From: Escherichia coli
GTDB lineage: Bacteria; Pseudomonadota; Gammaproteobacteria; Enterobacterales; Enterobacteriaceae
NCBI GenBank assembly: GCA_902500125.1
Contig: GCA_902500125.1_4132.1
Reading direction: 5' to 3' (one strand)
Length of the DNA stretch: 64,000 bases
The notes under the pieces were generated by a model, which was not told the origin of the DNA, ran no database searches, and saw nothing but the letters and a program-made list of their open reading frames with translations. Below are positions 3,094 through 51,640 of the stretch, piece after piece. Position 1 is the first letter of the stretch. Each line of letters starts with the position of its first letter. The position numbers were made by a program, and so were the translations under genes.

Positions 3094-3285
3094 ATGTTGA
3101 TTTATCAAAGTGATAATATTCGTGTTATGCAGCATCCCTACTTACAAATCTTTGATGTGCAGCAGTATATGGAAGGTGATGACCCAAGAACCTATGGTCG
3201 TAAGTATGATTACTTCACTGTAAAGCAGTGTAATAATATTAACGAAGTACGACAATTAGTTCAAGAACTTCAAAACAAAGGTTGA
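3094..3285 (+). CDS. hypothetical protein (63 aa)
   Basis: Internal Met of ORF 3040..3285 with RBS AAGGATTGATATTATG. Confidence 0.5.
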   Translation: MLIYQSDNIRVMQHPYLQIFDVQQYMEGDDPRTYGRKYDYFTVKQCNNINEVRQLVQELQNKG

Positions 3286-3305
3286 CTTCGGTCAGCCTTT
3301 TTTGT
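3277..3305 (+). terminator. rho-independent terminator, class T1 (GGTTGAC-TTCG-GTCAGCC + T-tract); also carries promoter-like TTGACT..TATAAT
   Basis: Hairpin with UUCG loop followed by TTTTTTG; same element repeated five times in 3-14 kb. Confidence 0.7.
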
Positions 3306-3339
3306 TATAATTCTCTTAATAAATTAGAGGATTTTAATT

Positions 3340-3780
3340 ATGTATGTATATCGTTTTGAACTTAAATTTAGTTACATTGAACCTAACTTAGATCCTGCAC
3401 GAACTGTAGGTCCGTTTGCACGGTATTCAACCAGATACAGTACTAAAAATGGATTTGACCGTTTGCTTATGACTACACCTTCTCAATTCCAACCTGAACC
3501 AACTGAGGATGGGATCTATTCAATCAAAAGTGGATGGGTATTTGGCTGTCAAAGTTTGAAAGATTTGTTCAGATTCTTCACTATGGACTTAGGTAAATTG
3601 CATCGTGCTGGGTTTGCTATATCTGTATATGAAGTTCCAGACCACCATGTAGACATTGGTCGTAATCAGGTTCAGTACTATTGCGGTAGTGCTAAATTAG
3701 TTCGTATCATGTCAGTTAAGGAAGCAAAGGATGAGTTCCGACAAAGTAAAAGAGAAACACATGAGGTAATATATGGATAA
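3340..3780 (+). CDS. hypothetical protein (146 aa)
   Basis: ORF track; RBS AGAGGATTTTAATTATG. Confidence 0.6.
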   Translation: MYVYRFELKFSYIEPNLDPARTVGPFARYSTRYSTKNGFDRLLMTTPSQFQPEPTEDGIYSIKSGWVFGCQSLKDLFRFFTMDLGKLHRAGFAISVYEVPDHHVDIGRNQVQYYCGSAKLVRIMSVKEAKDEFRQSKRETHEVIYG

Positions 3781-4117
3781 AACTCAAATAGAATTAAAGA
3801 AATTTGTTTCATTCTATCTTCCTGATGACCCACGTAATTCACAAAAAGATATTGAATATTATAATATCCTATCTAAACAGTTAATGAGAAAGTTTCAACA
3901 GTGTTTAACTATATTCAATACAGATGGAAGACGTAGATACCGAATCGTTTCAATGAATGATGAAAACGCAAATTTCTTTGATTACGATGTAGTTTTTAGA
4001 GCATATAATGATGATCGTATAAAATTAAATTATGATCAAATTATACTTGACCTGAATGTTATATGTGTTATAATCACTCACGTAGCCGAACTTAATGGTT
4101 TTAAAGAATGGTATTGA
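3773..4117 (+). CDS. hypothetical protein (114 aa)
   Basis: ORF track; overlaps the upstream stop (coupled). Confidence 0.55.
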   Translation: MDKTQIELKKFVSFYLPDDPRNSQKDIEYYNILSKQLMRKFQQCLTIFNTDGRRRYRIVSMNDENANFFDYDVVFRAYNDDRIKLNYDQIILDLNVICVIITHVAELNGFKEWY

Positions 4118-4131
4118 ATAGAGGATAACAT

Positions 4132-4398
4132 ATGAAGCTTAAATTACAATATAATGGATTTACTTTACGTAATGATACTGAATTTATTAATCGTTCTCCT
4201 GGTGCTGAACTGTTTTTACGAGAGATGAACATTCCTTTCATCATTACTACAGTGGGCGACCGTGAAGTTCTACAATATGCAGAGCATCCGATTATTGATG
4301 TTCCTTGGTACTCTGAGCATATGTACATGGATATGGCACGTCGCTACAACTGTAAGTTCGTAGTTGAAGGTGATAAAATTACAGTCGAATTTAAATAA
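4132..4398 (+). CDS. hypothetical protein (88 aa)
   Basis: ORF track; RBS AGAGGATAACATATG. Confidence 0.55.
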   Translation: MKLKLQYNGFTLRNDTEFINRSPGAELFLREMNIPFIITTVGDREVLQYAEHPIIDVPWYSEHMYMDMARRYNCKFVVEGDKITVEFK

Positions 4399-4409
4399 GG
4401 TAAATTAAA

Positions 4410-4703
4410 ATGATCAGTACTTCAGTTAATGAAAGCATCGTCGCTGACGTAGAAATGGTTAAAGAATGTGCAGATGAAACTCTTCGTGATATGTACATTA
4501 ATGATTTAATTACTGAATACGGTAGTCGTGGTGTACACGAATTTATTCGTTTAAGTGGAGAGTTGATGAAAAATCGAATTCGTATGAAGCTTAACGTACA
4601 TCCAAAAGCATGGGCATTTACATTAAAATACGCAGAAGATATTGTGAATTTGCGTCGAACTGAAGTATATGAACGTTTACACAATGGTATGTTAGATAAA
4701 TGA
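4410..4703 (+). CDS. hypothetical protein (97 aa)
   Basis: ORF track; RBS AAGGTAAATTAAAATG. Confidence 0.55.
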   Translation: MISTSVNESIVADVEMVKECADETLRDMYINDLITEYGSRGVHEFIRLSGELMKNRIRMKLNVHPKAWAFTLKYAEDIVNLRRTEVYERLHNGMLDK

Positions 4704-4713
4704 TTGTAAAATA

Positions 4714-4740
4714 GGAATTCTTAAATGAATTCCTTTTTGT
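4714..4740 (+). terminator. rho-independent terminator (AGGAATTC-TTAAAT-GAATTCCT + TTTTT)
   Basis: Perfect 8-bp stem followed by a T5 run. Confidence 0.65.
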
Positions 4741-4755
4741 TTATAAGGTATAGTA

Positions 4756-4977
4756 ATGAAATATATAGTACTTGTACTGATATTATTCAGTACTGTTGTA
4801 AGTGCTAAACAAAAAGAATATATTAAATGTATAAATTATGAAGAGAAATATGTTGAAACATATAAAAAAAGTATAATTAAAAACGTTTCGATTACTAACA
4901 GAGCAACAATCATTGTACTTAAAAATGGGTTAATTATGCTATATAAACCACACGTTAAATGTGAAATTATTAATTGA
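4756..4977 (+). CDS. secreted small protein (signal peptide)
   Basis: MKYIVLVLILFSTVVSA signal-like N-terminus. Confidence 0.55.
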   Translation: MKYIVLVLILFSTVVSAKQKEYIKCINYEEKYVETYKKSIIKNVSITNRATIIVLKNGLIMLYKPHVKCEIIN

Positions 4978-4984
4978 GGAAATT

Positions 4985-5557
4985 ATGAATCGTAAAGGTC
5001 GTTTTAAAGTATCAAAAAAGAACAAAAGTTCTAGGTTTAAACCTATTGTTTTAACAGTTAAATCTAACAAAGATTTAACTGCACTTAGTAAAAAGATAAT
5101 TTCATCTAAGATTGAAGTATCATACGTAAATTCATTAAAATATATGAATGTCAAACCACTGGACCAACTCATTTCACTTATATTTGAACGTAATGATTTT
5201 GAGATATCAGTAGATGATTATAGAGCCTATAATGCTGGTTTCATTAATGTTACTTGTAATAAAAAACTAACTGAGTTGGAAAATTTGTCATGTATAATAA
5301 ATCTAGATAAAGGTGTTGTGAAGTACCATTTTGTACATTTCACTAATATCAATAATGGAATGGGTGTACAATCCAGACCTATAGTGCCTACGTGTGATGT
5401 TACTAAATTAGCAAAGCTCAATGATGAAGAATATTTTCAAGAAAGCATTGTAACTGAGCATTTAGATGATATAATAGCTACTTACAAAGAATGCATATGG
5501 GTGTTGAATGCTATAAAACCTAAATTGTGTTTAATGAATATTGTTCGTGATTTATGA
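4985..5557 (+). CDS. hypothetical protein; distant member of the EEYFQxS[LI] family (array 3)
   Basis: Internal Met with RBS TTGAGGAAATTATG; contains LNDEEYFQESIV motif shared with the 59-63.7 kb paralogs. Confidence 0.55.
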   Translation: MNRKGRFKVSKKNKSSRFKPIVLTVKSNKDLTALSKKIISSKIEVSYVNSLKYMNVKPLDQLISLIFERNDFEISVDDYRAYNAGFINVTCNKKLTELENLSCIINLDKGVVKYHFVHFTNINNGMGVQSRPIVPTCDVTKLAKLNDEEYFQESIVTEHLDDIIATYKECIWVLNAIKPKLCLMNIVRDL

Positions 5558-5570
5558 ATGGGGAATCGTA

Positions 5571-6014
5571 ATGAGTTGGGTAAATGTTAATAGTATTGAA
5601 CTTAACGAACAAGATATTTTTGCATTTGTAAATTTAACTAATAACACAGTACTAAAAGGGCGTTTGTTCAGTGCGAGTGATGGATATAAATGGATCTCTT
5701 TGATGGATGATAGTGGTGTGATTTATAATGTAATGCAATTACCCCAATGGGTATATAGTAACACTGCCGACGATGTTCTTGCCGCAGTTATGCGTGAGTT
5801 TGAAAAACTCCCAGGTGGTGATATCAAAAACAAAGTTTTTAATGCAGAACGGAAAAATTATACAGCACAGCAGTTGGAATCCCTTGCCATTGCTGCTTAT
5901 CAAGCTGCTATTAAGAAGCCAGAGTGCGTTATTCTTAAGTATGTACCAGACTTAAAACTTACGTTGGAAGACATGGATGCATTCATTTTTACATCTGAAC
6001 TTGATCAGTACTAA
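5571..6014 (+). CDS. hypothetical protein (~147 aa)
   Basis: Internal Met of ORF 5541..6014 with RBS GGGGAATCGTAATG. Confidence 0.5.
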   Translation: MSWVNVNSIELNEQDIFAFVNLTNNTVLKGRLFSASDGYKWISLMDDSGVIYNVMQLPQWVYSNTADDVLAAVMREFEKLPGGDIKNKVFNAERKNYTAQQLESLAIAAYQAAIKKPECVILKYVPDLKLTLEDMDAFIFTSELDQY

Positions 6015-6129
6015 TTTAACTTTGGGACAACCATTCTTATTATGATATAATGTTTTATGTCATTCGATATAAATGACAACGGAACTATAAATATTATAGT
6101 AAAATTTATCTCTTATAGGAGTTATAAAA

Positions 6130-6513
6130 ATGGTTGGTAAATGGAATAAGAAAGATCCATCACATGATGTTGATATTTCTGGTCTAGACAATGCACATAA
6201 GCACAAGTATCTAGATTCACTAGGTCTTCTAAAACCAGACCAAAGTCTTGCACATGATCGTCCATCCCGTGAAAAAGCATTTAGCCTAGAATCACTAGGC
6301 CATGAGCTTAATCGTGTGTTTGAGGATCACCCAATCTATGTACGTGATATTATCGAGAAACTTAAAGTAACTCCTAAAGAGCACTTTAAAGCAACTGTAC
6401 ACTCTGCATTCCGTGCATTACATGAATCTCTAAAGAAAACTCACAATCTTCGTAAAATTCATGATGAAATCGTGAATGCAATCGAAAGTGAAAAACATAA
6501 GTTCAAGAAGTAA
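6130..6513 (+). CDS. hypothetical protein (127 aa); N-terminus paralogous to 7859..9118
   Basis: RBS TAGGAGTTATAAAAATG; shares a KxKYLDSLGLL motif with the 419-aa gene. Confidence 0.6.
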   Translation: MVGKWNKKDPSHDVDISGLDNAHKHKYLDSLGLLKPDQSLAHDRPSREKAFSLESLGHELNRVFEDHPIYVRDIIEKLKVTPKEHFKATVHSAFRALHESLKKTHNLRKIHDEIVNAIESEKHKFKK

Positions 6514-6518
6514 TAAAA

Positions 6519-6545
6519 ATGGTTGACTAAGGTCAGCCCTTTGTT
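6519..6545 (+). terminator. rho-independent terminator, class T1 variant
   Basis: GGTTGAC-TAAG-GTCAGCC hairpin followed by CTTTGTTG. Confidence 0.55.
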
Positions 6546-6581
6546 GTATCATAACTTCTCAATATAACTGAGGTATCATAT

Positions 6582-6695
6582 ATGCAAGGTTTGAAATTTG
6601 TAGTTGCTGCCCTAATCGCTGCTGTTGTAGTGGGTACAGTATGTTATTCAATTGACACCTATATCAATACACCTAGTGTTGAACAAACCAAATAA
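6582..6695 (+). CDS. small hydrophobic peptide (37 aa)
   Basis: RBS ACTGAGGTATCATATATG; MQGLKFVVAALIAAVVVGTVCYSIDTYINTPSVEQTK; below the ORF-track cutoff. Confidence 0.3.
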   Translation: MQGLKFVVAALIAAVVVGTVCYSIDTYINTPSVEQTK

Positions 6696-6703
6696 GGGAT
6701 ATC

Positions 6704-6967
6704 ATGGCTGAAACATTATCACTATATGCGTTAGTACTGTTATTTGTCGGATTTCTTCCCGCACTCATTACAGCCATTCGTGTTGTTAAACATGAAGCTG
6801 CATTGATTGTATGTAGTATTGGGTCGAACATTCTATTGTATTTCTTTTTGACAAATACTATTGTACTGTTTGCTTTCTTTATCATGATTCTGTGGGTACT
6901 TGTAATTCTCGGATTCTTCATTTGGTCATTGGTTGATCCTAAGAAAAAATCAGGAGAAGTGAAATGA
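6704..6967 (+). CDS. membrane protein (87 aa)
   Basis: ORF track; RBS AAGGGATATCATG; hydrophobic. Confidence 0.55.
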   Translation: MAETLSLYALVLLFVGFLPALITAIRVVKHEAALIVCSIGSNILLYFFLTNTIVLFAFFIMILWVLVILGFFIWSLVDPKKKSGEVK

Positions 6968-7260
6968 AATTAATTATAGCAATGATAATGTGTTTGGCTT
7001 TCCCTGTACTGGCTACTCCTAATCTGGACTGCACACTGTTGCGTTCAGATGGTGACACACTTGAAATCAACACATATGAACTCTTTGGTCCAAGTGTAGT
7101 GGAGAATGAAACCACCTACAATTTCAAAGCTATTGACTTTGAAGGTAATGTTCCAGTACTAACTACAATGACTATTGACAAAACTACTTTACTCGGACGA
7201 ATCACCACACAACGCGGAGAAAGTAAAACATTCACAGCGAAAGCTGACTGTAACTACTAA
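6964..7260 (+). CDS. secreted small protein (signal peptide)
   Basis: MKLIIAMIMCLAFPVLATP signal-like start; ATGA overlap with the upstream gene. Confidence 0.6.
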   Translation: MKLIIAMIMCLAFPVLATPNLDCTLLRSDGDTLEINTYELFGPSVVENETTYNFKAIDFEGNVPVLTTMTIDKTTLLGRITTQRGESKTFTAKADCNY

Positions 7261-7282
7261 TGGTATAGTACAGTGAAAATAG

Positions 7283-7306
7283 GGTTGACTTCGGTCAACC
7301 TTTATA
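7283..7306 (+). terminator. rho-independent terminator, class T1
   Basis: GGGTTGAC-TTCG-GTCAACC followed by TTTAT. Confidence 0.6.
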
Positions 7307-7325
7307 TATAATGGAAGAAATAAAC

Positions 7326-7883
7326 ATGGAACGTTGGAAATTAATTCCTGATTATGACTATTCAATTTCTGATCATGGAAGAGTAAGAAACGAACAAACT
7401 GGATATATAAGTTGTGGATTTAAAAATAAAGATGGGTATGTGAAGGTCGATTTGTATCGCAATTCTGTGAAAAATAGAAAGGCGATTCATCGACTAGTAG
7501 CTGAAGCATTTTTACCACCACCCACACAGAAACAGTTACAGTGGGCGAGTAGAACAAAGAAAAAAGTTGTTCACATAAACCATAAAGATTGTAATAGAAG
7601 TAACAATCACTATTTGAATTTGGAATGGAACACAGCATCTGAAAACGTACTATATTCTTATTCACATGGTAACGCAACAACTAATCGTGGTGCTGCTGTG
7701 TTGACATGGGAAATTGTAAGAGAAATAAGAAAAGATTATAATGATAATTATAATGATGTGATAGAATATGCACGAGAAAATTGTAATAAATACCGTGTAT
7801 GTAAAAAAAACAATACGTCGTATTTTATACAATCAAACATGGATAGAGGATTAAAAATATGCCACAAGATAATGGGGATATGA
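7326..7883 (+). CDS. HNH homing endonuclease (NUMOD4 + HNH_3)
   Basis: MERWKLIPDYDYSISDHGRVRN (NUMOD4 motif) and HRLVAEAF...HINHKDCNRSNNHYLNLEWNTASEN (HNH motif). Confidence 0.85.
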   Translation: MERWKLIPDYDYSISDHGRVRNEQTGYISCGFKNKDGYVKVDLYRNSVKNRKAIHRLVAEAFLPPPTQKQLQWASRTKKKVVHINHKDCNRSNNHYLNLEWNTASENVLYSYSHGNATTNRGAAVLTWEIVREIRKDYNDNYNDVIEYARENCNKYRVCKKNNTSYFIQSNMDRGLKICHKIMGI

Positions 7884-9118
7884 AACATCGTAATGGTGGA
7901 CTAGTACAACACTCGGATAAATGGGCCGACCGAAATCGTCGCAAAAATAGTTATCAAGCAGGACAAGGTTCACGTGGTTCCAGAAACCAAGGAACGGGAC
8001 TTGCTGGTAAGGCAAACGCAGAAGCAGGTGAAGTTAAGAGTACTGAGAACATGACTGAGCTAGAAAAGCTACGTTATGTTAATTCATTGGGACTTCTTAA
8101 TGCTACACAAAAACAACGTCTAGCTGATATGGAACGTGAAGAAAAAGAAAAGTCTGCTCCTGCGAAAGAAGAACCAAAACAAGAAGCACCAAAGGCGGTT
8201 AACCCTGTCAAAGAACTGTCTGATAAGTTAGGTAAGATTTTTGCTAATAAACCACAACTTATCCAAGGTATTGTGAAAGAATTGCAATCTGTACCTAAAG
8301 AAGAATTAAAAGTCAAAGCACAAGCTGTACTTGATGCAATGAGTGGAAATACCAGTACTGAACCAACTGAAGTATTCAGTACTATAATGCGTGCACTTGA
8401 AGGTACGCAACAAGGTGATGTGCCTGCACAAGAGGAAGTAAGTCTTGAAAGCGTACTTAAAACATTTGATAGTATTGGTAAAGAAGACCGTGCTAATGCT
8501 CAACAAGTTAAGAATGTACTAGCTAAGTTAGAAAACCGTCTGGAAGGTAAAGACGATAAGATTAAATTAGTATCTGATGCAGTTAACGATGCACTTAAAT
8601 CTTATGTACAAGGTGAAAAGAGTCGTTTTGTAACTGCAATGGATGCTGCATTCAATACTATGAAAAAGTATGAAGCTGATCATGGTGAGAAGGTTACACG
8701 AGATGGTTATCTGATGCGTGATGATGAAGAAGGTGCAGTAGAACAGAATGATGTTCATTCAGACGAAGAAATTGATGACATGGAAGCTGAACTGTCACAA
8801 GACCGCCAAATGACTGAAAAATCCCATAACGAACTACAGAAATTAATGCAATGGGTTGCAGATGTTGGTGAAAAAGCTGGTGCTGATAAGAAGAGTATAA
8901 ACCGAAATCTTAGTTGGATTAAAGATAAAGTTGGTAACAACGCTCGTAAACTACAAAAAGCGTGGACTGATGTAGTGAATGGTGCTGTTGACATTGATGT
9001 TGAATCCGGTGAGGCATATGATTATGCATTGACTACACTTGATGACTCTTTCCGTGATTACGAAAATGGAAATGTAACTCCTTGGGAAAAGGATATCATG
9101 AGCAAATACGGTAAATGA
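7859..9118 (+). CDS. acidic, coiled-coil-rich protein (419 aa)
   Basis: ORF track; RBS AGGATTAAAAATATG; E/K/D-rich; N-terminal region paralogous to 6130..6513. Confidence 0.65.
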   Translation: MPQDNGDMKHRNGGLVQHSDKWADRNRRKNSYQAGQGSRGSRNQGTGLAGKANAEAGEVKSTENMTELEKLRYVNSLGLLNATQKQRLADMEREEKEKSAPAKEEPKQEAPKAVNPVKELSDKLGKIFANKPQLIQGIVKELQSVPKEELKVKAQAVLDAMSGNTSTEPTEVFSTIMRALEGTQQGDVPAQEEVSLESVLKTFDSIGKEDRANAQQVKNVLAKLENRLEGKDDKIKLVSDAVNDALKSYVQGEKSRFVTAMDAAFNTMKKYEADHGEKVTRDGYLMRDDEEGAVEQNDVHSDEEIDDMEAELSQDRQMTEKSHNELQKLMQWVADVGEKAGADKKSINRNLSWIKDKVGNNARKLQKAWTDVVNGAVDIDVESGEAYDYALTTLDDSFRDYENGNVTPWEKDIMSKYGK

Positions 9119-9127
9119 TAAAACAAA

Positions 9128-9152
9128 AGGTTGACTTCGGTCAGCCTTTTTT
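9128..9152 (+). terminator. rho-independent terminator, class T1
   Basis: AAGGTTGAC-TTCG-GTCAGCCTT followed by TTTTTG. Confidence 0.7.
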
Positions 9153-9188
9153 GTTATGATGTTGGTATTAACTACAGAGGATAAAGTA

Positions 9189-14030: not shown

Positions 14031-14040
14031 AATAAAAAAA

Positions 14041-14066
14041 GGGTTGACTTAGGTCGGCCCTTTTGC
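14041..14066 (+). terminator. rho-independent terminator (T1/T2-like) followed by TTGCTATTATATC
   Basis: GGGTTGAC-TTAG-GTCGGCCC followed by TTTTG. Confidence 0.6.
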
Positions 14067-14100
14067 TATTATATCTATATCGAAACGAAGGAGACAAACC

Positions 14101-35624: not shown

Positions 35625-35653
35625 TTGACTTATTTTGTCAGTACTGGCATAAT
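35625..35653 (+). promoter_or_regulatory. promoter TTGACT-N17-CATAAT with no ORF for ~370 nt
   Basis: TTGACTTATTTTGTCAGTACTGGCATAATG; the transcript would cover intergenic elements A and B. Confidence 0.45.
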
Positions 35654-35843
35654 GTATTCATTGGCAGATAAGCCGTAGCCCATAGGGTGCGGGAGTGTAT
35701 CTATAGAAAAATTAGTTTAGTATAGTTACAATTGTGCACCCGGTGGGTTAGCTGTTGTCATGGGGTATATTATGCCAGTACTTGATAATGCTGTCAATAC
35801 TTTTTTTTAATATTCAGTACTGAAAACTATTTTTAAAAAGTAC

Positions 35844-42453: not shown

Positions 42454-42461
42454 TTGAAAAA

Positions 42462-42492
42462 AGGGTTGACTCCGGTCAGTCCCTTTGCTATT
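42462..42492 (+). terminator. class T2 terminator/promoter element (AGGGTTGAC-TCCG-GTCAGTCCCTTTGCTATTAT)
   Basis: Hairpin followed by TTTG; TTGACT within the stem lies 17 nt from TATTAT. Confidence 0.65.
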
Positions 42493-42588
42493 ATATATAC
42501 ATACCAGCGATACACTGGCGGCCCATAGGGTGCACAAATGTATCTATTATATAAGTATTGAGTACTGAAAACTATTTTTAAAAAGTAC

Positions 42589-43860: not shown

Positions 43861-43889
43861 TTGACAATATCATCCAGTACTGGCATAAT
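43861..43889 (+). promoter_or_regulatory. promoter TTGACA-N17-CATAAT with ~295-nt leader
   Basis: TTGACAATATCATCCAGTACTGGCATAAT; the leader holds element A and a cluster of GATCAA/TGATCA motifs. Confidence 0.55.
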
Positions 43890-44185
43890 ACTTACATCAA
43901 GACGAGAACGTCACTAACCCATAGGGTGCACAAATGTAACTATATAATATCGATCAATAAATGATCAAAAAAGTACTGGATCAATTTAACATAAGGAGTA
44001 TAATTCTGATCAATTCTTGATCAAAGGCAATATACGCAGTTGAATTTATATAGACATTACAAAGGCGTTACTATCCGTGGTAATGCTGGTGGATATGTAG
44101 TATCATATGGTTTGAATAAGATTAGCACTAGTAGTATTATTGTAGCATTACAGTACTATAGTATTTTTATAATGAGGTTAAAATA

Positions 44186-45200: not shown

Positions 45201-45216
45201 CTAAGAGGAAAGAAAA

Positions 45217-45429: not shown

Positions 45430-45436
45430 AAAGTAC

Positions 45437-45494
45437 TTGCACTGTACTGAATAAAGTGTATAATGTTTTATATCGGAAGGGGAATAGTTCCCCT
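45437..45494 (+). promoter_or_regulatory. early cassette promoter + hairpin GGGGAATAGTTCCCC
   Basis: TTGCAC-N16-TGTATAAT. Confidence 0.6.
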
Positions 45495-45515
45495 CCTAAC
45501 AAAGAGGAAAGTATA

Positions 45516-45689: not shown

Positions 45690-45835
45690 AAGAATTCTTA
45701 TTTGAAGTAGTGTTTCAAGGTGTCGGTAGTAACCAACTGATTCGCTCAAGTGGTTATAATGTTAACCAGGCATGGAATAACATTAAACAAATGTACCCGA
45801 ACGCTATCACCTATCGCAACCCGAAAGAAGTTTAA
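45686..45835 (+). CDS. small hypothetical protein (49 aa)
   Basis: ATGA-coupled ORF MKEFLFEVVFQG...; below the track cutoff. Confidence 0.35.
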   Translation: MKEFLFEVVFQGVGSNQLIRSSGYNVNQAWNNIKQMYPNAITYRNPKEV

Positions 45836-45848
45836 AAATAATTGAAAA

Positions 45849-45880
45849 AGGGATTGACTCCGGTCAGTCCCTTTGCTATT
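45849..45880 (+). terminator. class T2 terminator/promoter element
   Basis: AAAAAGGGATTGACTCCGGTCAGTCCCTTTGCTATTATATACGCATAG. Confidence 0.65.
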
Positions 45881-45982
45881 ATATACGCATAGAAACAAAT
45901 TAGCCCACCGGGTGCATAAATGTATCTATTGTTTGCTGGTGGCTAGTACTATCAAGTACTGAAAACTATTTTTAAAAAGTAC

Positions 45983-46010
45983 TTGCATTGTAATTAGAAT
46001 CAAGTATAAT
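45983..46010 (+). promoter_or_regulatory. early promoter (TTGCAT-N16-TATAAT), upstream of tandem pair
   Basis: Part of a ~170-bp block duplicated from 35823-35990. Confidence 0.6.
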
Positions 46011-46020
46011 GTTTTACATC

Positions 46021-46100
46021 AGGACGGGGAACGAAACAAGTAACCCCGTTAAGTAGTCCAGGAGTAAGACATACGAAAAACTCCCCTGATAAAATAGTTT
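46021..46100 (+). ncRNA. structured leader/candidate small RNA (copy 2)
   Basis: Copy of 35881-35960 with stem-compatible substitutions (ACGGGGAACGAAACAAGTAACCCCGTT). Confidence 0.35.
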
Positions 46101-46126
46101 GACAATAGAAAGTAAACGAGTATAAT
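46099..46126 (+). promoter_or_regulatory. promoter TTGACA-N16-TATAAT (downstream of pair)
   Basis: TTGACAATAGAAAGTAAACGAGTATAATAC. Confidence 0.6.
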
Positions 46127-46159
46127 ACTTACATCAACCACTGATAAGGAAACATTAAA

Positions 46160-46435
46160 ATGCGGATTCTACTGACAGCTAACGAAATCGAACAAGTACT
46201 GACTACTAACCTGGAACAATGGAAACGTGATGCAGATATCCAGGCGGTTCAATGGCTTAACGATAAGTTAACGCCGGATGACTTAAGCAAGATTGTAGAT
46301 CCTCAATTCTACGAAGATATTCACGACACGGCTTTAAGCGTCGAGGATGTACTTGATAAGCATTACATTAATACCGATTTACAGGTTTACGGGCGTAAAA
46401 ACTTTATCACTATTCACGACATTTACAATACTTAA
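46160..46435 (+). CDS. hypothetical early protein (91 aa)
   Basis: RBS TAAGGAAACATTAAAATG. Confidence 0.6.
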   Translation: MRILLTANEIEQVLTTNLEQWKRDADIQAVQWLNDKLTPDDLSKIVDPQFYEDIHDTALSVEDVLDKHYINTDLQVYGRKNFITIHDIYNT

Positions 46436-46438
46436 GTA

Positions 46439-46497
46439 TTGACAAAGTATCTTAGTACTGTATAATAGTTTACATCAAGGCGGGGAAATGGTTCCCC
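46439..46497 (+). promoter_or_regulatory. early cassette promoter (TTGACA-N16-TGTATAAT) + hairpin CGGGGAAATGGTTCCCCT
   Basis: Consensus promoter. Confidence 0.65.
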
Positions 46498-46522
46498 TCC
46501 TAACAAAGAGAGAGAAATAAAA

Positions 46523-46846
46523 ATGGCTATGATCCTTACCCAGAAAGTGGAATTGAAAATTGTAACCTCCTTTGACATTAAAGTTAATCGCTGGACTGAT
46601 CGGAACGGCAATACTTACCACTCTTGCTACGTGTCTGCGTTAATTGGCGACCGCTGGGAAGACCTGGGACACGAAACCTTTACATACGGTTACGGTACGC
46701 AAGGCGAATACACTGGTTTGGAGATCATTAAAGAAACCGTTATAGGTTTCAACCCGAAAGAAAAAGTTATGCACCGCATCGAAAAAGAGATTAACAAAGA
46801 AATAACAGTTCGCTACTACGATGTAAAACGTAAGAAAGACATGTAA
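46523..46846 (+). CDS. hypothetical early protein (107 aa); paralog of 40543
   Basis: RBS AGAGAGAGAAATAAAAATG. Confidence 0.6.
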   Translation: MAMILTQKVELKIVTSFDIKVNRWTDRNGNTYHSCYVSALIGDRWEDLGHETFTYGYGTQGEYTGLEIIKETVIGFNPKEKVMHRIEKEINKEITVRYYDVKRKKDM

Positions 46847-46868
46847 TAGAATCCATTTAAAGTACTAT

Positions 46869-46897
46869 TTGACATTGCCCAGATAGTACTTTATAAT
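46869..46897 (+). promoter_or_regulatory. promoter TTGACA-N17-TATAAT
   Basis: TTGACATTGCCCAGATAGTACTTTATAAT. Confidence 0.6.
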
Positions 46898-46941
46898 AGA
46901 CTCTAACTTGTAGTACTAACTCAACTAATAGGATGTATACC

Positions 46942-47337
46942 ATGATTACTAAATTCTACGCTACCCGTGAAGCTGCCCGTATTGTTGCACGCGAGGAAGG
47001 AGCAGCATTTAAAGACATGGGAACGACAGCACCGAAAGGTCAACGCTGGGCCGTACAGTTCAAAGAAATCTCTGATATTGTGAATTCACCTGAGCCAGTA
47101 CTAACAGCAGCAGAACTAAAACGAGCGGATATGCTGGCGGCAATACTTGACGCACAAGATGAGTTTATCGCTGATTCTGATATCAAAGTACAGGTAAACC
47201 ACACCGCATGGACTCACGCGGATCACCTGGCAAACCTTAAGCGTCCAAGTGAACTGATTCGCAACCAGAAAGAGATCCGACATGATCGTAAGGGTAATCG
47301 TGTAACAGTATACAGTAAACGCCGCCAGGTTATCTAA
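46942..47337 (+). CDS. hypothetical protein (~131 aa); paralog of 35010
   Basis: MITKFYATREAARIVAREEGAAFKDMG...DRKGNRVTVY; RBS TAGGATGTATACCATG. Confidence 0.55.
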   Translation: MITKFYATREAARIVAREEGAAFKDMGTTAPKGQRWAVQFKEISDIVNSPEPVLTAAELKRADMLAAILDAQDEFIADSDIKVQVNHTAWTHADHLANLKRPSELIRNQKEIRHDRKGNRVTVYSKRRQVI

Positions 47338-47359
47338 TAACTTGCAGTACTAACAACAC

Positions 47360-47385
47360 GGCGGGATCAGTTCCCGCCTTTTTTA
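47360..47385 (+). terminator. rho-independent terminator (GGCGGGA-TCAG-TTCCCGCC + T6)
   Basis: Hairpin followed by TTTTTTA. Confidence 0.7.
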
Positions 47386-47398
47386 TAGGACAAACAAA

Positions 47399-47653
47399 AT
47401 GATTAAGGTTCAACTATATAAAGATAACATCTTACGGGTACACTATAAAGCACCGAAGAGAATCATCACAAAGGCCGTACAGCTTGCTAATGAGTTTATT
47501 AATGGTAACCTATTACCAAGGAAGTTAAGCAACGGGAAACTGCGTGTAATCGACGTGGACACTAACAACAGGATAGTAATCGAGAACACAGGAAAAATAA
47601 ACCTTTATGAGCATCAACAATACAATAAGAAAATAAAACTAATATCACGTTGA
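47399..47653 (+). CDS. hypothetical protein (84 aa)
   Basis: RBS ATAGGACAAACAAAATG. Confidence 0.55.
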   Translation: MIKVQLYKDNILRVHYKAPKRIITKAVQLANEFINGNLLPRKLSNGKLRVIDVDTNNRIVIENTGKINLYEHQQYNKKIKLISR

Positions 47654-47679
47654 CAGTACTCAAATGTTTTAGTATTATG
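47650..47679 (+). promoter_or_regulatory. promoter TTGACA-N18-TATTAT (duplicated block, copy 1)
   Basis: TTGACAGTACTCAAATGTTTTAGTATTATG. Confidence 0.5.
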
Positions 47680-47706
47680 TACACATACCAACACGGGAGA
47701 AACAAA

Positions 47707-47925
47707 ATGAAATTATCTAAAATCGAAAAGAAAACTATTGATGAAGCAGTTAAGCACGGTTATACCTTTCGTAATGATTCACATTTTACCAATTTTCAAC
47801 AGGGGTATCGTACTATTAAAAAACTAATTGACAAAGGTTTATTAGTTGAAGTCAATAATGGGAACGGTATCGAGTATCAGCCAACCCAAGACGCATTATC
47901 TTTAAAGAAATATAATATTATCTAA
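47707..47925 (+). CDS. hypothetical protein (72 aa)
   Basis: RBS ACGGGAGAAACAAAATG. Confidence 0.55.
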   Translation: MKLSKIEKKTIDEAVKHGYTFRNDSHFTNFQQGYRTIKKLIDKGLLVEVNNGNGIEYQPTQDALSLKKYNII

Positions 47926-47953
47926 TTGACAGTACTCAAATGTTTTAGTACTA
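47926..47953 (+). promoter_or_regulatory. promoter (duplicated block, copy 2)
   Basis: TTGACAGTACTCAAATGTTTTAGTACTAT. Confidence 0.45.
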
Positions 47954-47983
47954 TATGTACATACCAACACGGGGAAAAACAAA

Positions 47984-48226
47984 ATGATTACTTTAGAAAA
48001 ACGTATCAAAGAAACTACATCGCTGGTGGAATTGTTAACAGTACTCAAATGTAAAACAACACCATTCAGCACGCCGGACTTTATTAATATGGTTGATGTT
48101 AATGGTCGCTATCGTATCACGGTCGAACAAGGAGCGGCGAAAGTATTCAGTACTAAAAACACGAAGGAAGTGATCCACGCCGTTAATGTTAAAAAAGTAG
48201 TTGCCATTGATAGTAAAGTACTGTAA
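47984..48226 (+). CDS. hypothetical protein (80 aa)
   Basis: RBS ACGGGGAAAAACAAAATG. Confidence 0.55.
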   Translation: MITLEKRIKETTSLVELLTVLKCKTTPFSTPDFINMVDVNGRYRITVEQGAAKVFSTKNTKEVIHAVNVKKVVAIDSKVL

Positions 48227-48257
48227 TATAGTTTCATTAACTCAAGGAGAACATGCA

Positions 48258-48842
48258 ATGCGTAATTATACTAAATTCATCCGTACACTGTCAGAAATGG
48301 AAACCAACAAAGAGATCCTTTCAGCTTGTCGGTTAGCTGGCCTGGAGATCATCGGTGCTGGTTCTTCCCGTATAGTTTTCGCTTTAAATGATCGGTTAGT
48401 GATTAAGGTCGCGAATTGTGATGCGGGTGTAGAACAAAATGAAACTGAATGTAAGGTATGGAATTTTTTAGACTATGACCGCCCTCAGTTGAAACAGTAC
48501 TTTGCAAAGGTGCATATGCATTTATGCGATCCTGATAATATGTTTATCGTTATGGATCGGTTGAGTACTGCAAGCAAAGGTAGTGTGAAGCACGTAAACG
48601 CGTGCAATGAATTAAAGTACAATATTAAACGTAATGCAATCGAACGCCAGCACCGCTTTGCTGATGCACTACAACACGTCGATGATACATTATCAACACT
48701 AACGATAAGAGATATCAGAAAACAGAATATCGGCCAGGATCGTAATGGCCTTATTAAAGTACTTGATTACGGTTTAACCTGCAATATCTGGAATCAGTAC
48801 TATAAAAAGCGTGATGTGGCAGCAAGTAAGGTAACACGATAA
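48258..48842 (+). CDS. small protein-kinase-like protein (~194 aa)
   Basis: RBS AAGGAGAACATGCAATG; IIGAGSSRIVF (G-loop), VIKVA, IRDIRKQNIG (catalytic-loop-like), KVLDYG (DFG-like). Confidence 0.6.
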   Translation: MRNYTKFIRTLSEMETNKEILSACRLAGLEIIGAGSSRIVFALNDRLVIKVANCDAGVEQNETECKVWNFLDYDRPQLKQYFAKVHMHLCDPDNMFIVMDRLSTASKGSVKHVNACNELKYNIKRNAIERQHRFADALQHVDDTLSTLTIRDIRKQNIGQDRNGLIKVLDYGLTCNIWNQYYKKRDVAASKVTR

Positions 48843-48855
48843 AAAAGATTAAAAA

Positions 48856-48890
48856 AGGGATTGACTCCGGTCAGTCCCTTTGCTATTATA
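48856..48890 (+). terminator. class T2 terminator/promoter element
   Basis: AAAAAAGGGATTGACTCCGGTCAGTCCCTTTGCTATTATATA. Confidence 0.65.
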
Positions 48891-48983
48891 TATCCATTGA
48901 GAGATAACTCACTGACCCATAGGGTGCGGAAGTGTATCTATTATATAAGTATTCAGTACTGAAAACTATTTTTTAAAAAGTAC

Positions 48984-49046
48984 TTGCATTGTACTTAGAA
49001 TCAAGTATAATGTTTTATATCGAGAGGGGGAAATGGTTCTCCCTGG
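48984..49046 (+). promoter_or_regulatory. early cassette promoter + hairpin GGGGGAAATGGTTCTCCC
   Basis: TTGCAT-N16-TATAAT; preceded by element A. Confidence 0.6.
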
Positions 49047-49065
49047 TATATTAAGGAATAAAATC

Positions 49066-49287
49066 ATGACTACAATGACTTGCATTTACGCTTCCAATCG
49101 TCTGAATGATGCGGCCTTTAATGTTGATTCAGAATATCAATGTTATCGGGATGAAAATAAAAAAGTTTTTGTAGTTGATAATAATGGTTTCCATATTGAA
49201 TTACAATCCGGCTTCACTGGTGTTGATGGTAAATCAGTATGGGGCGTACAGGATGATAAAGGTACATATCATTTTAAACGTAATTAA
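49066..49287 (+). CDS. hypothetical early protein (73 aa)
   Basis: RBS TTAAGGAATAAAATCATG. Confidence 0.55.
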   Translation: MTTMTCIYASNRLNDAAFNVDSEYQCYRDENKKVFVVDNNGFHIELQSGFTGVDGKSVWGVQDDKGTYHFKRN

Positions 49288-49291
49288 GTAT

Positions 49292-49353
49292 TTGACAAAG
49301 TATCTTAGTACTGTATAATAGTTTACATCAAGGGGAGAATAGTTCTCCCCGAT
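49292..49353 (+). promoter_or_regulatory. early cassette promoter (TTGACA-N16-TGTATAAT) + hairpin GGGGAGAATAGTTCTCCCC
   Basis: Consensus promoter. Confidence 0.65.
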
Positions 49354-49371
49354 ACTAAAAGGAATAAAATC

Positions 49372-49776
49372 ATGACTACTACTAATCTTGCTCGGAATAT
49401 CGCCAACGATAAAAATCATGCTGCAATGGTCGCTGGTTACATTGAAGCTATGCAATTCAGTACTGTACATAATGATAACGGCGATTACCTGGAAGATTAT
49501 GAGTTATCTGATGAAGCACGTCAAGCGGCGGTGATTGCATGTTCTCGCTTCATTGAGAAACACGGTAATGATCTGGAAGTAGTTCGCGGTATGTTTATTG
49601 ATTACGGTTATGAGCAAGCTGGTCATGATCTGTTCCTTACCCGCGAAGGTCACGGAACTGGTTTTTGGGATCGTGGTTTAGGTCACTATGGCGATGTATT
49701 CACGAAGTACTGCGAAGAAATCAACGTTTGCGATCCCTATGTAGGCGATGATAACTTAATCTATATGGGCGAATAA
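49372..49776 (+). CDS. hypothetical early protein (134 aa)
   Basis: RBS AAAAGGAATAAAATCATG. Confidence 0.6.
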   Translation: MTTTNLARNIANDKNHAAMVAGYIEAMQFSTVHNDNGDYLEDYELSDEARQAAVIACSRFIEKHGNDLEVVRGMFIDYGYEQAGHDLFLTREGHGTGFWDRGLGHYGDVFTKYCEEINVCDPYVGDDNLIYMGE

Positions 49777-49782
49777 AAGTAT

Positions 49783-49843
49783 TTGACAAAGTATATCAGT
49801 ACTGTATAATAGTTTACATCAAGGGGAGAATAGTTCTCCCCAA
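49783..49843 (+). promoter_or_regulatory. early cassette promoter (TTGACA-N16-TGTATAAT) + hairpin GGGGAGAATAGTTCTCCCC
   Basis: Near-duplicate of the 49292 cassette. Confidence 0.65.
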
Positions 49844-49863
49844 TACTAAAAGGAAACAAAATT

Positions 49864-50136
49864 ATGTCCAGCTACTCCGCTACTATGATCATTAAAGATA
49901 TGAACGGTAATCCTACTTCTGCTGGTGGATCATTTGGAAATATTAACTTAGATGGGCGGTTATCCATGCAATCAGCCATCGATGCAGCGAAAGAAGTTTT
50001 TAAGAATGAATGTACTGTTAGTAAGCTGGATTATATGGGTTTCGCTATCGAGAAAACTACTCGTTTTGTGAACTACAAAAATCCACTGATGATTGATACT
50101 AACCTGAAAGCTAACGAAGTGGGGTACTTATTATGA
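49864..50136 (+). CDS. hypothetical early protein (90 aa)
   Basis: RBS AAAAGGAAACAAAATTATG. Confidence 0.6.
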   Translation: MSSYSATMIIKDMNGNPTSAGGSFGNINLDGRLSMQSAIDAAKEVFKNECTVSKLDYMGFAIEKTTRFVNYKNPLMIDTNLKANEVGYLL

Positions 50137-50324
50137 CAGTAGAAGAAGTAAAAAAAGTACTGGCAGTACTACGATATCATAATCATTGCAAGGTGAAGAA
50201 TGATCCTGATTATCTTGATTCATCCCTGGAGGAAGACACCTTGAACGCTATAAGCCATATGCAGACATTAGCAAAGCGTATGACTGAAAAGAACATGCCG
50301 GACTATATCGGAAATAAAATTTAA
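50133..50324 (+). CDS. hypothetical protein (63 aa)
   Basis: ATGA-coupled. Confidence 0.5.
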   Translation: MTVEEVKKVLAVLRYHNHCKVKNDPDYLDSSLEEDTLNAISHMQTLAKRMTEKNMPDYIGNKI

Positions 50325-50331
50325 AAAGTAC

Positions 50332-50393
50332 TTGCATTGTAGTTAGATTAACGTATAATGTTTTATATCGAGAGGGGGAAATGGTTTCCCCTC
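50332..50393 (+). promoter_or_regulatory. early cassette promoter + hairpin GGGGGAAATGGTTTCCCC
   Basis: TTGCAT-N16-TATAAT. Confidence 0.6.
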
Positions 50394-50411
50394 AAGTCCA
50401 GGAGATACACA

Positions 50412-50675
50412 ATGAACACTATCGAAATCACTATCAATGCACACGTATACGACAACGTAGTACTGCAAACTACTATGACCGCTAATGATACCAGTACTTT
50501 GCGGAATACTGTTATTAGTGCCGTATGTGCTGCAATCGGTGATGTATCCCTGGAAAATGCAGAACATATCAACAACGGTTTCACTATGTGCAAGCGTGAT
50601 AACGCAAAACATATCATCGTGGAAGGTTACGGCGGTGTAGAATTTAATGTTTATATGAAAAAAGTACTTGCATAA
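50412..50675 (+). CDS. hypothetical early protein (87 aa)
   Basis: RBS CCAGGAGATACACAATG. Confidence 0.55.
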   Translation: MNTIEITINAHVYDNVVLQTTMTANDTSTLRNTVISAVCAAIGDVSLENAEHINNGFTMCKRDNAKHIIVEGYGGVEFNVYMKKVLA

Positions 50676-50724
50676 TAACTAAAACAAAGTATAATGTTTT
50701 GCATAGGGGGAGATATCCTCCCCC
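50668..50724 (+). promoter_or_regulatory. early cassette promoter + hairpin GGGGGAGATATCCTCCCCC
   Basis: TTGCAT-N16-TATAAT; overlaps the 3' end of the upstream gene. Confidence 0.55.
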
Positions 50725-50742
50725 ACTAAAAGGAGTAATAAA

Positions 50743-50967
50743 ATGGCTAACTTTGATGAACTGATGCGGGAAGTAGCTAACCTGGCAGAAGAGAAGAAAT
50801 CATTCGATTCTATCTATAACACCGCTCACCGTGATTCAGTACTGGCATGTAACCAGGATCAAAAAGATGAACTAATCGCCACCTATCATGAAGCATGGAA
50901 GTACTACCGACAATGGGAGAAAGAAGAAAGTGAGTCTACCATTGACGGCCTCAATAATCTAATCTAA
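50743..50967 (+). CDS. hypothetical early protein (74 aa)
   Basis: RBS AAAGGAGTAATAAAATG. Confidence 0.6.
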   Translation: MANFDELMREVANLAEEKKSFDSIYNTAHRDSVLACNQDQKDELIATYHEAWKYYRQWEKEESESTIDGLNNLI

Positions 50968-50986
50968 AAGTTTTATTTCAGTACTA

Positions 50987-51016
50987 TTGACATAGCTTGA
51001 TAGTACTGATGTAATA
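50987..51016 (+). promoter_or_regulatory. class-2 promoter (AGTACTATTGACATAGCTTGATAGTACTGATGTAAT)
   Basis: TTGACA-N17-TGTAAT. Confidence 0.5.
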
Positions 51017-51043
51017 ACTTTACTAACTACAAGGGGAAACATA

Positions 51044-51301
51044 ATGGATCAGTTCACACAATATCGGGTAAATCCTCAAGCTATGGCCTACGTAGAAGAC
51101 CATAAAACGTTACCAGTACTGCAACCAGTTAAAGGCCATATCTATCGTGCAATGTCGTGGTGTGCGGCCCAGGATGGCTATAAAACCGTAGCCGTTGGTA
51201 TGTACTGCGGTAATGGTGAATGGTTTGATCCAAATAATCCGGTATCCATTGACAGTACTGAAAAAATGAAATGGGCCGACTACATCGAAGATATTTCATA
51301 A
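51044..51301 (+). CDS. hypothetical protein (85 aa)
   Basis: RBS AAGGGGAAACATAATG. Confidence 0.55.
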   Translation: MDQFTQYRVNPQAMAYVEDHKTLPVLQPVKGHIYRAMSWCAAQDGYKTVAVGMYCGNGEWFDPNNPVSIDSTEKMKWADYIEDIS

Positions 51302-51308
51302 AAACTAT

Positions 51309-51370
51309 TTGACAGTACTAACCAGTAATGTATAATGTTTTACATAGAGCGGGGGAATAGTTCTCCCGCC
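51309..51370 (+). promoter_or_regulatory. early cassette promoter (TTGACA-N16-TATAAT) + hairpin GCGGGGGAATAGTTCTCCCGCC
   Basis: Consensus promoter. Confidence 0.65.
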
Positions 51371-51391
51371 AATAGTTTGGAGTAAAACATT

Positions 51392-51592
51392 ATGTCTATC
51401 GCTATCGCCCTGGTTGAAGTACTGAAAGAAGCTAAAGCCAACCAGATCGACGTAAAGATCCAGGAACTACAAAACGGCTTAATCGGCTGTACTTGTACCG
51501 CTGGTGGAGCGGCAGACTATCGAGAACACGAATCACTCGAATCACTGGTTCGGTATCTTACCATGATCGTTGATGATTGGAGAATCATCTAA
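51392..51592 (+). CDS. hypothetical early protein (66 aa)
   Basis: RBS TTGGAGTAAAACATTATG. Confidence 0.55.
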   Translation: MSIAIALVEVLKEAKANQIDVKIQELQNGLIGCTCTAGGAADYREHESLESLVRYLTMIVDDWRII

Positions 51593-51608
51593 CAAAAAAG
51601 AATAAAAA

Positions 51609-51640
51609 AGGGATTGACTCCGGTCAGTCCCTTTGCTATT
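51609..51640 (+). terminator. class T2 terminator/promoter element
   Basis: AAAAAGGGATTGACTCCGGTCAGTCCCTTTGCTATTATATACGCATAG. Confidence 0.65.

Follow-up and report, generated by a model that had tools for sequence, protein, structure and literature searches.

Terminator hairpins with a built-in −35 hexamer: candidate promoter-early stem-loop cassettes in an Asteriusvirus-type jumbo phage

The stretch of DNA analysed here, 64,000 nt of contig GCA_902500125.1_4132.1 from an assembly filed under Escherichia coli (GCA_902500125.1) and called the window below, carries nine copies of an intergenic element of about 45 bases in which a terminator-like hairpin and a match to a sigma-70 promoter occupy the same bases. 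In Megablast searches, the 42–52 kb and 1–18 kb parts of the window matched E. coli jumbo myophages of ~350–385 kb at 87–97% identity, among them 121Q, PBECO4, G17, slurp01 and others of the genus Asteriusvirus. By these matches, the window is assigned to a jumbo phage of the Asteriusvirus (121Q/PBECO4/G17) type. The region at 33–53 kb is densely filled with very small genes, each having its own strong sigma-70-type promoter, and most genes around the elements are annotated as hypothetical. The features of one relative beneath the 42–52 kb match include annotated "Direct Terminal Repeats". A tRNA/tmRNA scan of the window found none, and Rfam returned nothing at the gathering threshold over the whole window; its only match in the region of the downstream elements was to a snoRNA (E = 2.5), which we judged meaningless.

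All nine copies lie on the + strand and are named here by the first base of their TTGACT hexamer (Table 1). They share a fixed order of parts. From 5′ to 3′, each comprises an upstream stop codon, which lies within about 20 nt (0–20 nt) of every copy, an A-tract of 3–7 A, an outer stem (GG, GGG or GGGA), the inner stem TTGAC, a tetraloop, the arm GTCAG, the complement of the outer stem, a T-tract of 3–6 T, a G followed by C or T, and TATNAT, after which 5–7 nt lead to a conserved CA. The hexamer TTGACT consists of the inner 5′ arm and the first loop base, which supplies the last T of the −35 hexamer, and the T-tract forms the 3′ portion of the promoter spacer. In the GTCAG arm, the two T of TTGAC find A and G as partners, the latter in a U·G wobble. 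Most tetraloops are TTCG or TCCG, which gives c(UUCG)g or c(UCCG)g loops of the UNCG type. Tuerk and colleagues reportedly noted c(UUCG)g tetraloops in phage T4 intrinsic terminators in 1988.

A sequence-only reading of the window had sorted the repeats into two classes of near-identical copies, T1 (the five copies from 3282 to 14044) and T2 (the four from 42466 to 51614). All nine copies exist, at positions 1–5 nt from those it gave, and the T2 copies are indeed nearly identical, since all four lie within 2 mismatches of the 41-mer quoted for them. For T1 the claim holds for copies 3282 and 9131 only (at 3277 and 9126), where the quoted 28-mer is matched with no more than 3 mismatches; the remaining T1 copies have the core in common with these two, but their loops (TAAG, TTAG), 3′ arms (GTCAA, GTCGG) and tails are different. 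The two classes are better described as the ends of a continuum, because copy 14044 bridges them with a T1-like stem and the T2 tail GCTATTATAT (repeat family D11). The string TTGACNNNNGTCA occurs 10 times in the window, against 0.5 expected.

The RNA hairpins are stable, with folding energies of −12.1 to −19.5 kcal/mol and z-scores of −2.8 to −6.5 relative to shuffled sequences. A terminator scan of the + strand passed eight of the nine copies, including T2 copies with only 3 consecutive T; copy 7285 was listed on the − strand only (7300–7283). The elements were the top-ranked + strand terminator-like sites in 1–18000 and were listed in 33000–52900 as well. With their GC-rich stem, UNCG loop closed by C-G, U-tract, upstream A-tract and position just past a stop codon, they resemble canonical intrinsic terminators, from which they differ in that the stem must also spell a −35 hexamer and the U-tract is trimmed (3 U in T2) for promoter spacing. 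The three U that follow the very stable stem of T2 would also suit a 3′-end stabiliser or processing signal that shields the upstream mRNA from 3′ exonucleases once it has been read through and cleaved, especially at T2. We consider that role highly unlikely, given that T1 copies have canonical U-tracts of 5–6 U, that ARNOLD calls both types terminators in G17 and that comparable phage stem-loops reduce lacZ expression about as much as a known terminator (see below).

The same repeat could in principle act as DNA, as an operator TTGAC-N4-GTCA(A/G) at which a dimeric FNR/CRP-like or phage regulator overlaps the promoter. Its core resembles FNR-type half-sites, its exact string TTGACTTCGGTCAA turns up in a publication on global regulators (see below), and copy 7285 is a perfect palindrome, yet most copies are imperfect palindromes as DNA (GTCAG, GTCGG, GTTGG) and become perfect only as + strand RNA with G·U pairs. 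Pairing also reaches into the outer stems, which covary, and into the A and T tracts. The loops are of the UNCG type, and a place right behind stop codons in a fixed orientation with the genes is what terminators usually show. On the grounds of RNA-only pairing and the covarying outer stem, we rejected the FNR/CRP-like operator, which is extremely improbable.

As promoters, the nine copies match the sigma-70 consensus at 10–11 of 12 positions, a statement about sequence match only. The sequence-only reading had placed TTGACT in the 5′ arm of the stem, which is true of all nine copies, and a TATAAT or TATTAT hexamer exactly 17–18 nt downstream. The spacer measures 16–18 nt (18, 18, 16, 18 and 17 nt in the T1 copies in map order and 17 nt in every T2 copy), with copy 7285 as the 16-nt case, and seven of the nine hexamers are as described, the others being TATCAT in copy 6523 and TATGAT in copy 9131. 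A TG stands two bases 5′ of the hexamer in 7/9 copies. Past the −10, the two ends of the continuum diverge: in the five T1 copies, the Shine-Dalgarno sequence and ATG of the next gene follow within 25–45 nt, whereas the four T2 copies, which delimit early-region blocks of ~3 kb, are separated from the next gene by a conserved leader and another promoter. The sequence-only reading had missed that T2 promoters would feed this leader and not a gene. The other terminators of the window, at 38715, 39446 and 47360, have neither TTGAC nor an adjacent −10.

For comparative analysis, copies were gathered from nine loci of relatives, fetched by homology, and by scanning IMG/VR with GGTTGACTNNGGTCRRCC, in which the −10 is not included. 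Among the 84 unique IMG/VR matches in terminator context, 76 have a −10 (TAnnnT, at least 4/6) at a spacer of 16–18 nt, compared with 3, 8 and 3 of the same 84 at control offsets, and chance matches outside terminator context have one in only 8 of 35 cases. When the spacer search was widened to 12–24 nt, 140 of 154 unique copies still had their −10 at 17 or 18 nt. The position of the −10 is locked in this way in related and unrelated large phages alike. The locking is specific to hairpins with TTGAC in the stem, 119/151 of which have a strong −10 starting 4–10 nt past the stem, whereas only 27/290 other terminator-like hairpins of the same loci have one at that place. Several unrelated stems embed a −35 at 17 nt too, an example being GTACTTGCA-TTCG-TGTGAGTAC followed by TTTGT and TATTAT.

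The hairpin and the promoter also trade length. With each nucleotide by which the end of the stem moves away from TTGACT (10, 11, 12 nt), the hexamer comes closer to the stem (7–8, 6–7, 5–6 nt) and the T-run gets shorter (5–6, 4–5, 3); Spearman rho is −0.61. The short U-tract of T2 can thus be seen as the cost of keeping a 17-nt spacer. The two arms of the stem evolve differently. Copies found through their 3′ half alone have TTGAC in the 5′ arm in 37/37 cases, while their 3′ arms vary (GTCAG, GTCAA, GTCGG, GTTGG) and pairing is always kept through G·U; in the IMG/VR flanks, copies outside the scan pattern have TTGAC in 7/8 cases and TTGAT in 1/8. A change of T to C in the 5′ arm, which would turn a wobble into a G-C pair and strengthen the stem, was never seen. 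In the outer stem, on the other hand, both sides covary (G-C, A-T, C-G and T-A pairs); in one relative (locus L042), GTAC/GTAC takes the place of GGGA/TCCC, and both TTGACT and the 17-nt spacer are kept.

These patterns bear most directly on a simpler reading, in which the element is a much-copied terminator and nothing else, TTGACT is merely part of it and TATNAT is an AT-rich by-product or belongs to unrelated promoters. Annotation favours that reading: the GenBank record of G17, where ARNOLD scored hairpins of both the T1 and T2 types, and the supplementary tables of the paper on CBB, the two sources checked for the Rak2 group, give the same hairpins as Rho-independent terminators only, apart from their promoter lists, and one hairpin of phage UE-S1 is treated likewise. 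Some relatives' copies lack any −10, and the invariance of TTGAC could have been inherited through common ancestry. Against this stand the locked −10, a T-tract that shortens as the stem lengthens, which is costly for a pure terminator, a 5′ arm that never takes the stabilising change while the 3′ arm drifts, the scarcity of an adjacent −10 at other terminators of the same loci and, as described below, the occurrence of ordinary promoters in the same slot before the leader motif. We therefore regard a terminator-only element as unlikely, and the overlap of termination and re-initiation signals proposed from the sequence alone gains support from the −10 locking, the compensation between stem and T-tract, the asymmetry of the arms and the TTGAC-specific −10.

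Several observations weigh against this dual role. The copies share descent, probably with gene conversion, which means that counts and nominal p-values overstate their independence, and TTGACT itself was the basis on which the IMG/VR loci were selected. Hairpins without a usable −10 occur at position 11295 of locus L003 of G17, at 6295 of locus L075 of 121Q (TTTTTTTGTAAATA) and in locus L037 of RaK2; the TTGACT hairpin can thus occur as a terminator and nothing else, and not every copy need act as a promoter, a point that the sequence-only reading had missed. Where the window has copy 7285, its relatives carry TATACT and then, ahead of a virion structural gene, the T4-type late motif TATAAATA; a sigma-70 reading may be irrelevant at that site. 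With only three T past the stem, the termination efficiency of T2 is uncertain, and a second strong promoter ~115 nt past the T2 promoters makes their contribution to expression unclear.

On balance, the comparative evidence supports a dual terminator/promoter role for the nine ~45-base cassettes, and we think it probable that each is a composite transcription punctuation cassette of the promoter-early stem-loop (PeSL) type that is read in two ways. Read as RNA, an incoming transcript would fold the A-tract, G-rich outer stem, UUGAC, tetraloop, GUCAG and C-rich outer stem into a hairpin followed by the U-tract, and RNA polymerase would terminate intrinsically right after the upstream stop codon. 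Read as double-stranded DNA, the same bases would serve the host sigma-70 polymerase as a near-consensus early promoter, with the A-tract as a UP-like element, TTGACT as the −35, the remainder of the hairpin plus the T-tract as a spacer of 17–18 bp and TGn-TATNAT as an extended −10. Transcription would start ~6–8 nt past the hexamer, typically at the conserved CA. Because the new transcript would begin downstream of the hairpin, it would not contain it, and the cassette would thereby insulate the downstream unit from read-through and reset its expression. T1 would drive the next gene directly, and T2 the conserved leader that precedes the next gene's own promoter. Such cassettes would define transcription units in a genome whose early genes nearly all lack an assigned function. 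The signature of dual constraint, in which a longer stem is paid for with a shorter U-tract and drift is confined to the arm opposite the −35, is unusually clean; annotators should call a promoter at "terminators" of this kind, and the element could provide synthetic biology with a ready-made 45-bp insulator/restart part.

PeSLs, which the sequence-only reading did not recognise in these elements, were described in T4-like phages (RB49/phi1, T4/PST and KVP40/nt-1) as conserved cassettes between genes, in each of which a stem-loop terminator is joined to a strong early promoter of sigma-70-like type (Arbiol 2010, PMC2839356; Comeau 2014, PMC4122927). Five subclasses are distinguished by the position of the stem-loop, including overlap with the −35 and placement between −35 and −10 (PMC2839356, PMC4122927). 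In lacZ fusions, RB49/phi1 PeSLs showed both promoter and terminator activity, and PeSL stem-loops cut downstream lacZ about as much as the rrnB T1 terminator (PMC2839356). The elements of the window share with PeSLs (~50–100 bp, intergenic) the sigma-70-like promoter joined to a stable stem-loop, here overlapping the −35 in all nine copies, the stop codon at the 5′ edge and an AT-rich stretch upstream of the −35. The 3′ edge of a PeSL is a Shine-Dalgarno sequence and ATG, as in the five T1 copies but not in the four T2 copies. The stem consensus of nt-1/KVP40 PeSLs, A3-4 G3-loop-C3 T3-4, fits the present hairpin. Both sets are found in many copies amid small genes without assigned function, here nine per 64 kb, and 121Q has seven T1-type copies within one 14-kb locus. 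By this architecture and the KVP40-type match, the element is most probably a PeSL-type cassette, a compact form of a published class and not a new kind of thing.

Differences from the published PeSLs concern the host phage and the uniformity of the element. The present phage is a ~350 kb jumbo phage (Asteriusvirus) outside the T4 subfamily; a single hairpin sequence with TTGACT fixed in its 5′ arm is used almost exclusively and is common to several phage groups; and the T2 promoters would transcribe a conserved leader, not a gene. A 244,834-bp IMG/VR contig of KVP40 size has three copies of the same architecture, and several copies each were found in IMG/VR contigs of the length of RaK2 (345,809 bp) and 121Q (348,532 bp), and also in contigs of 358,663 bp, ~230–247 kb and ~110–160 kb. 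The PeSL idea would thus extend from T4-type phages to the 350-kb Rak2/121Q group, with nearly the same hairpin and its built-in −35 common to several groups of large phages. In the literature searched, we found no report of PeSLs in the Rak2/121Q group and nothing on Asteriusvirus promoters or terminators, on overlapping terminators and promoters or on RaK2 early promoters; the hairpin string TTGACTTCGGTCAA retrieved one unrelated paper, on the regulons of global transcription factors. The morons of lambdoid phages (Hendrix et al., discussed in PMC2839356) are likewise genes or small cassettes with their own promoter and terminator. Moron signals, however, are separate and not repeated, whereas here both signals are fused in one repeated element between neighbouring cassettes.

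Modular shuffling through mini-circles has been proposed for PeSLs (Arbiol 2010, PMC2839356; Comeau 2014, PMC4122927), and the elements might accordingly be recombination or mobility cassettes whose portable homology shuffles genes, the transcription signals being secondary. In local blastn comparisons of the window with the nine loci from relatives, homology breaks in or at elements at 7303 (twice), 9152, 14028–14035, 14072 and 51595, and even more often at other repeated early promoters (43318/43377, 46422 and 49383/49777). At a site where the window has one element, G17 has two identical hairpins with a two-gene cassette between them. It also has a half-element (AAAGGGTTGACTTCGGTTACACAAAGG) at position 17458 of locus L003, in the interval that separates denV from the gene after it; this half-element keeps the 5′ arm and loop, has lost the 3′ arm and resembles the degraded "1/2 PeSLs" of Comeau et al. 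2014 (PMC4122927). Compared with the sequence as a whole, breakpoints are over-represented both in the elements (p = 0.01) and in the other promoter repeats (p = 8e-10), but the enrichment vanishes against an intergenic-only null (p = 0.13 and 0.17, respectively), which is why we make no strong claim for a shuffling role. In addition, the break at 7303 is accounted for by the inserted homing-endonuclease gene, and recombination leaves the spacing compensation and arm asymmetry unexplained. As the primary function of the elements, recombination is quite unlikely; as a by-effect it is plausible and is compatible with the terminator/promoter cassette rather than an alternative to it, and the repeated copies would probably provide the homology through which cassettes are gained and lost, a role already suggested for PeSLs.

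The leader downstream of T2 has the consensus RCCC-N3-GGGTGC-N4-RTGTATCTAT, and the next early promoter follows it by ~40 nt. It occurs on the + strand of the window at 33678, 35685, 42528, 43924, 45910, 48922 and 51670, and the motif is present in further loci as well (L007–L010, L035, L042, L045, L072, L080, L086 and L097), which come from Asteriusvirus-type phages and other large phage contigs of ~355–378 kb. For 36 of 37 unique leaders, a promoter with at least 10/12 matches has its −10 ending 20–27 nt upstream, as opposed to 5% of random controls. The upstream regions of 13 of these 37 leaders do not fit the hairpin pattern TTGAC-N4/5-GTYR, and in the window the same leader stands at the same distance behind two promoters without a hairpin (35625 and 43861). 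The TTGACT-17-TATTAT of T2 fills the same slot as these ordinary promoters, which lends independent support to initiation at T2.

Two alternative hairpins with GGG in common are possible in the leader; consensus folding supports nothing beyond a G·U-rich 7-bp hairpin, in which changes are one-sided and compensatory pairs are not convincing, and the leader had no Rfam match. In a metagenomic contig (L097), it lies between the promoter and a strong terminator, an arrangement that may produce a small RNA, and the window copy at 33678 ends in U7. From these data, we propose, as a guess that is probably wrong, that T2 is a three-part unit of terminator, promoter and promoter-locked RNA signal, the last being an undescribed cis-acting RNA or an RNA of ~50–90 nt. 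If so, the leader could license or attenuate transcription from T2-type promoters, by nut/put-like antitermination or as an attenuator, or be a phage small RNA. Lambda nut (boxA/boxB) and HK022 put are promoter-proximal RNA signals, and at nut, boxB is bound by an N-like protein and terminators are read through. The leader is similar in that a short GC hairpin (RCCC-N3-GGGU) lies at a fixed short distance past early promoters, in units that contain terminators, but it has no boxA-like sequence and a different loop; the likeness is a lead and not a class assignment. Two other ideas about this region were dropped. The string CTATTATATA was considered as a separate late or middle promoter motif but is only mildly in excess (32 versus 18.6 expected), and its exact copies are T2 tails and two leader copies. 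A MotA-box-type promoter at T2 does not fit in spacing, and TATAAATA is absent from T2 elements.

Table 1. Elements, leader motifs and associated features of the window. Copies are named by the first base of TTGACT.
Feature	Coordinates	Strand	Hairpin or motif	Promoter match	Context
T1 copy 3282	3273..3311	+	hairpin 3277–3300, loop TTCG	−35 3282–3287; 18-nt spacer; TGT + TATAAT 3306–3311	TGA stop (3283–3285) of open reading frame 3040–3285 inside TTGACT; next ATG 3340
T1 copy 6523	6514..6552	+	hairpin 6521–6538, loop TAAG	−35 6523–6528; 18-nt spacer; no TG; TATCAT 6547–6552	weakest −10 of the nine
T1 copy 7285	7276..7312	+	perfect palindrome GGTTGACTTCGGTCAACC 7283–7300	−35 7285–7290; 16-nt spacer; TATAAT 7307–7312	
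HNH/NUMOD4 homing-endonuclease gene	7311–7883				inserted right after the hairpin of copy 7285
T1 copy 9131	9122..9160	+	hairpin 9125–9150, loop TTCG	−35 9131–9136; 18-nt spacer; TGT + TATGAT 9155–9160	upstream of a gene annotated protein kinase in relatives
Intermediate copy 14044	14035..14072	+	hairpin 14037–14064, loop TTAG, 3′ arm GTCGG	−35 14044–14049; 17-nt spacer; TGC + TATTAT 14067–14072	homology to several relatives starts or ends at 14028–14072
T2 copy 42466	42457..42494	+	stem GGGTTGAC/GTCAGTCCC, one bulge, loop TCCG	−35 42466–42471; 17-nt spacer; TGC + TATTAT 42489–42494	
T2 copy 45854	45845..45882	+	hairpin 45847–45874 (12 pairs, −19.5 kcal/mol); T-tract only 3 T	−35 45854–45859; TGC + TATTAT 45877–45882	
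T2 copy 48861	48852..48889	+	hairpin 48854–48881	−35 48861–48866; TGC + TATTAT 48884–48889	orthologous hairpin in phage UE-S1 annotated as terminator
T2 copy 51614	51605..51642	+	hairpin 51607–51634	−35 51614–51619; TGC + TATTAT 51637–51642	homology breakpoint relative to phage TH47 at 51595
Leader motif	42520..42551	+			26 nt past T2 −10; next early promoter ~40 nt later
Leader motif	45902..45933	+			T2 copy 45854; −10 ends 20 nt upstream
Leader motif	48914..48945	+			downstream of T2 copy 48861
Leader motif	51662..51693	+			downstream of T2 copy 51614
Ordinary promoter without hairpin	35625..35705	+		TTGACT-17-CATAAT with TG	leader at 24 nt (GGGTGC 35685)
Ordinary promoter without hairpin	43861..43944	+		TTGACA-17-CATAAT with TG	leader at 27 nt (GGGTGC 43924)

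More novel than the cassette itself are two loose ends of this analysis, the promoter-locked leader and a large excess of AGTACT. AGTACT occurs 278 times in the 64 kb, against roughly 20 estimated from base composition, and the 8-bp palindrome CAGTACTG 65 times in the whole window, against 0.8 expected, with its highest density at 32100–34200 and 37 of the 65 sites in coding sequence. Many early promoters have CAGTACTG immediately upstream of the −10 (CAGTACTGTATAAT), and AGTACT is found ahead of the −35 (AAAGTACTTGCA). The excess and placement of the two suggest a DNA-level signal, such as the target of a regulator, a modification site or a packaging signal; a literature search for CAGTACTG found primers only.

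One highly conserved family of early promoters, AAAGTACTTGCA-N16-TATAAT-GTTTTACAT, has at least 23 copies at 34136–52237 (for example 34596–34663 and 48974–49070). At about +3, they have a hairpin in the 5′ untranslated region (GGGGAGAAATGGTTCTCCCC and variants), followed by a Shine-Dalgarno sequence, and they resemble the PeSL subclass with the stem-loop downstream of the −10. Many homology breakpoints relative to relatives fall in the repeats of this family.

About 2 kb of the window (32115–34168) contain no open reading frame of at least 100 aa, only a few short ones, and many CAGTACTG boxes. Iteron-like tandem repeats (GGATGGCTAGATTTCTGGATGGCTGGATGGCTAGA, CGGCTAAACGGCTAGA) and a switch in the sign of the GC skew are found in the same interval, which could be a replication origin or the boundary of a terminal repeat.

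Other parts of the window consist of paralogues. Seven tandem paralogues of ~245–410 aa lie on the − strand at 18562–27816. Their 5′ ends are conserved together with the sequence upstream (repeat families D8, D12 and D16), and in relatives they are annotated as RCC1-repeat or "DNA condensation" proteins. In G17, a terminator is annotated just downstream of most of these paralogues; a search of G17 bases 1–50000 found no TTGAC-N4-GTYR core in these terminators. Long runs of overlapping + strand open reading frames of 60–90 aa, belonging to paralogue families (D10, D14, D15 and D20), occupy 27920–32114 and 53500–59000, and in the 28–32 kb block the GC skew is negative despite the + strand orientation of the reading frames.

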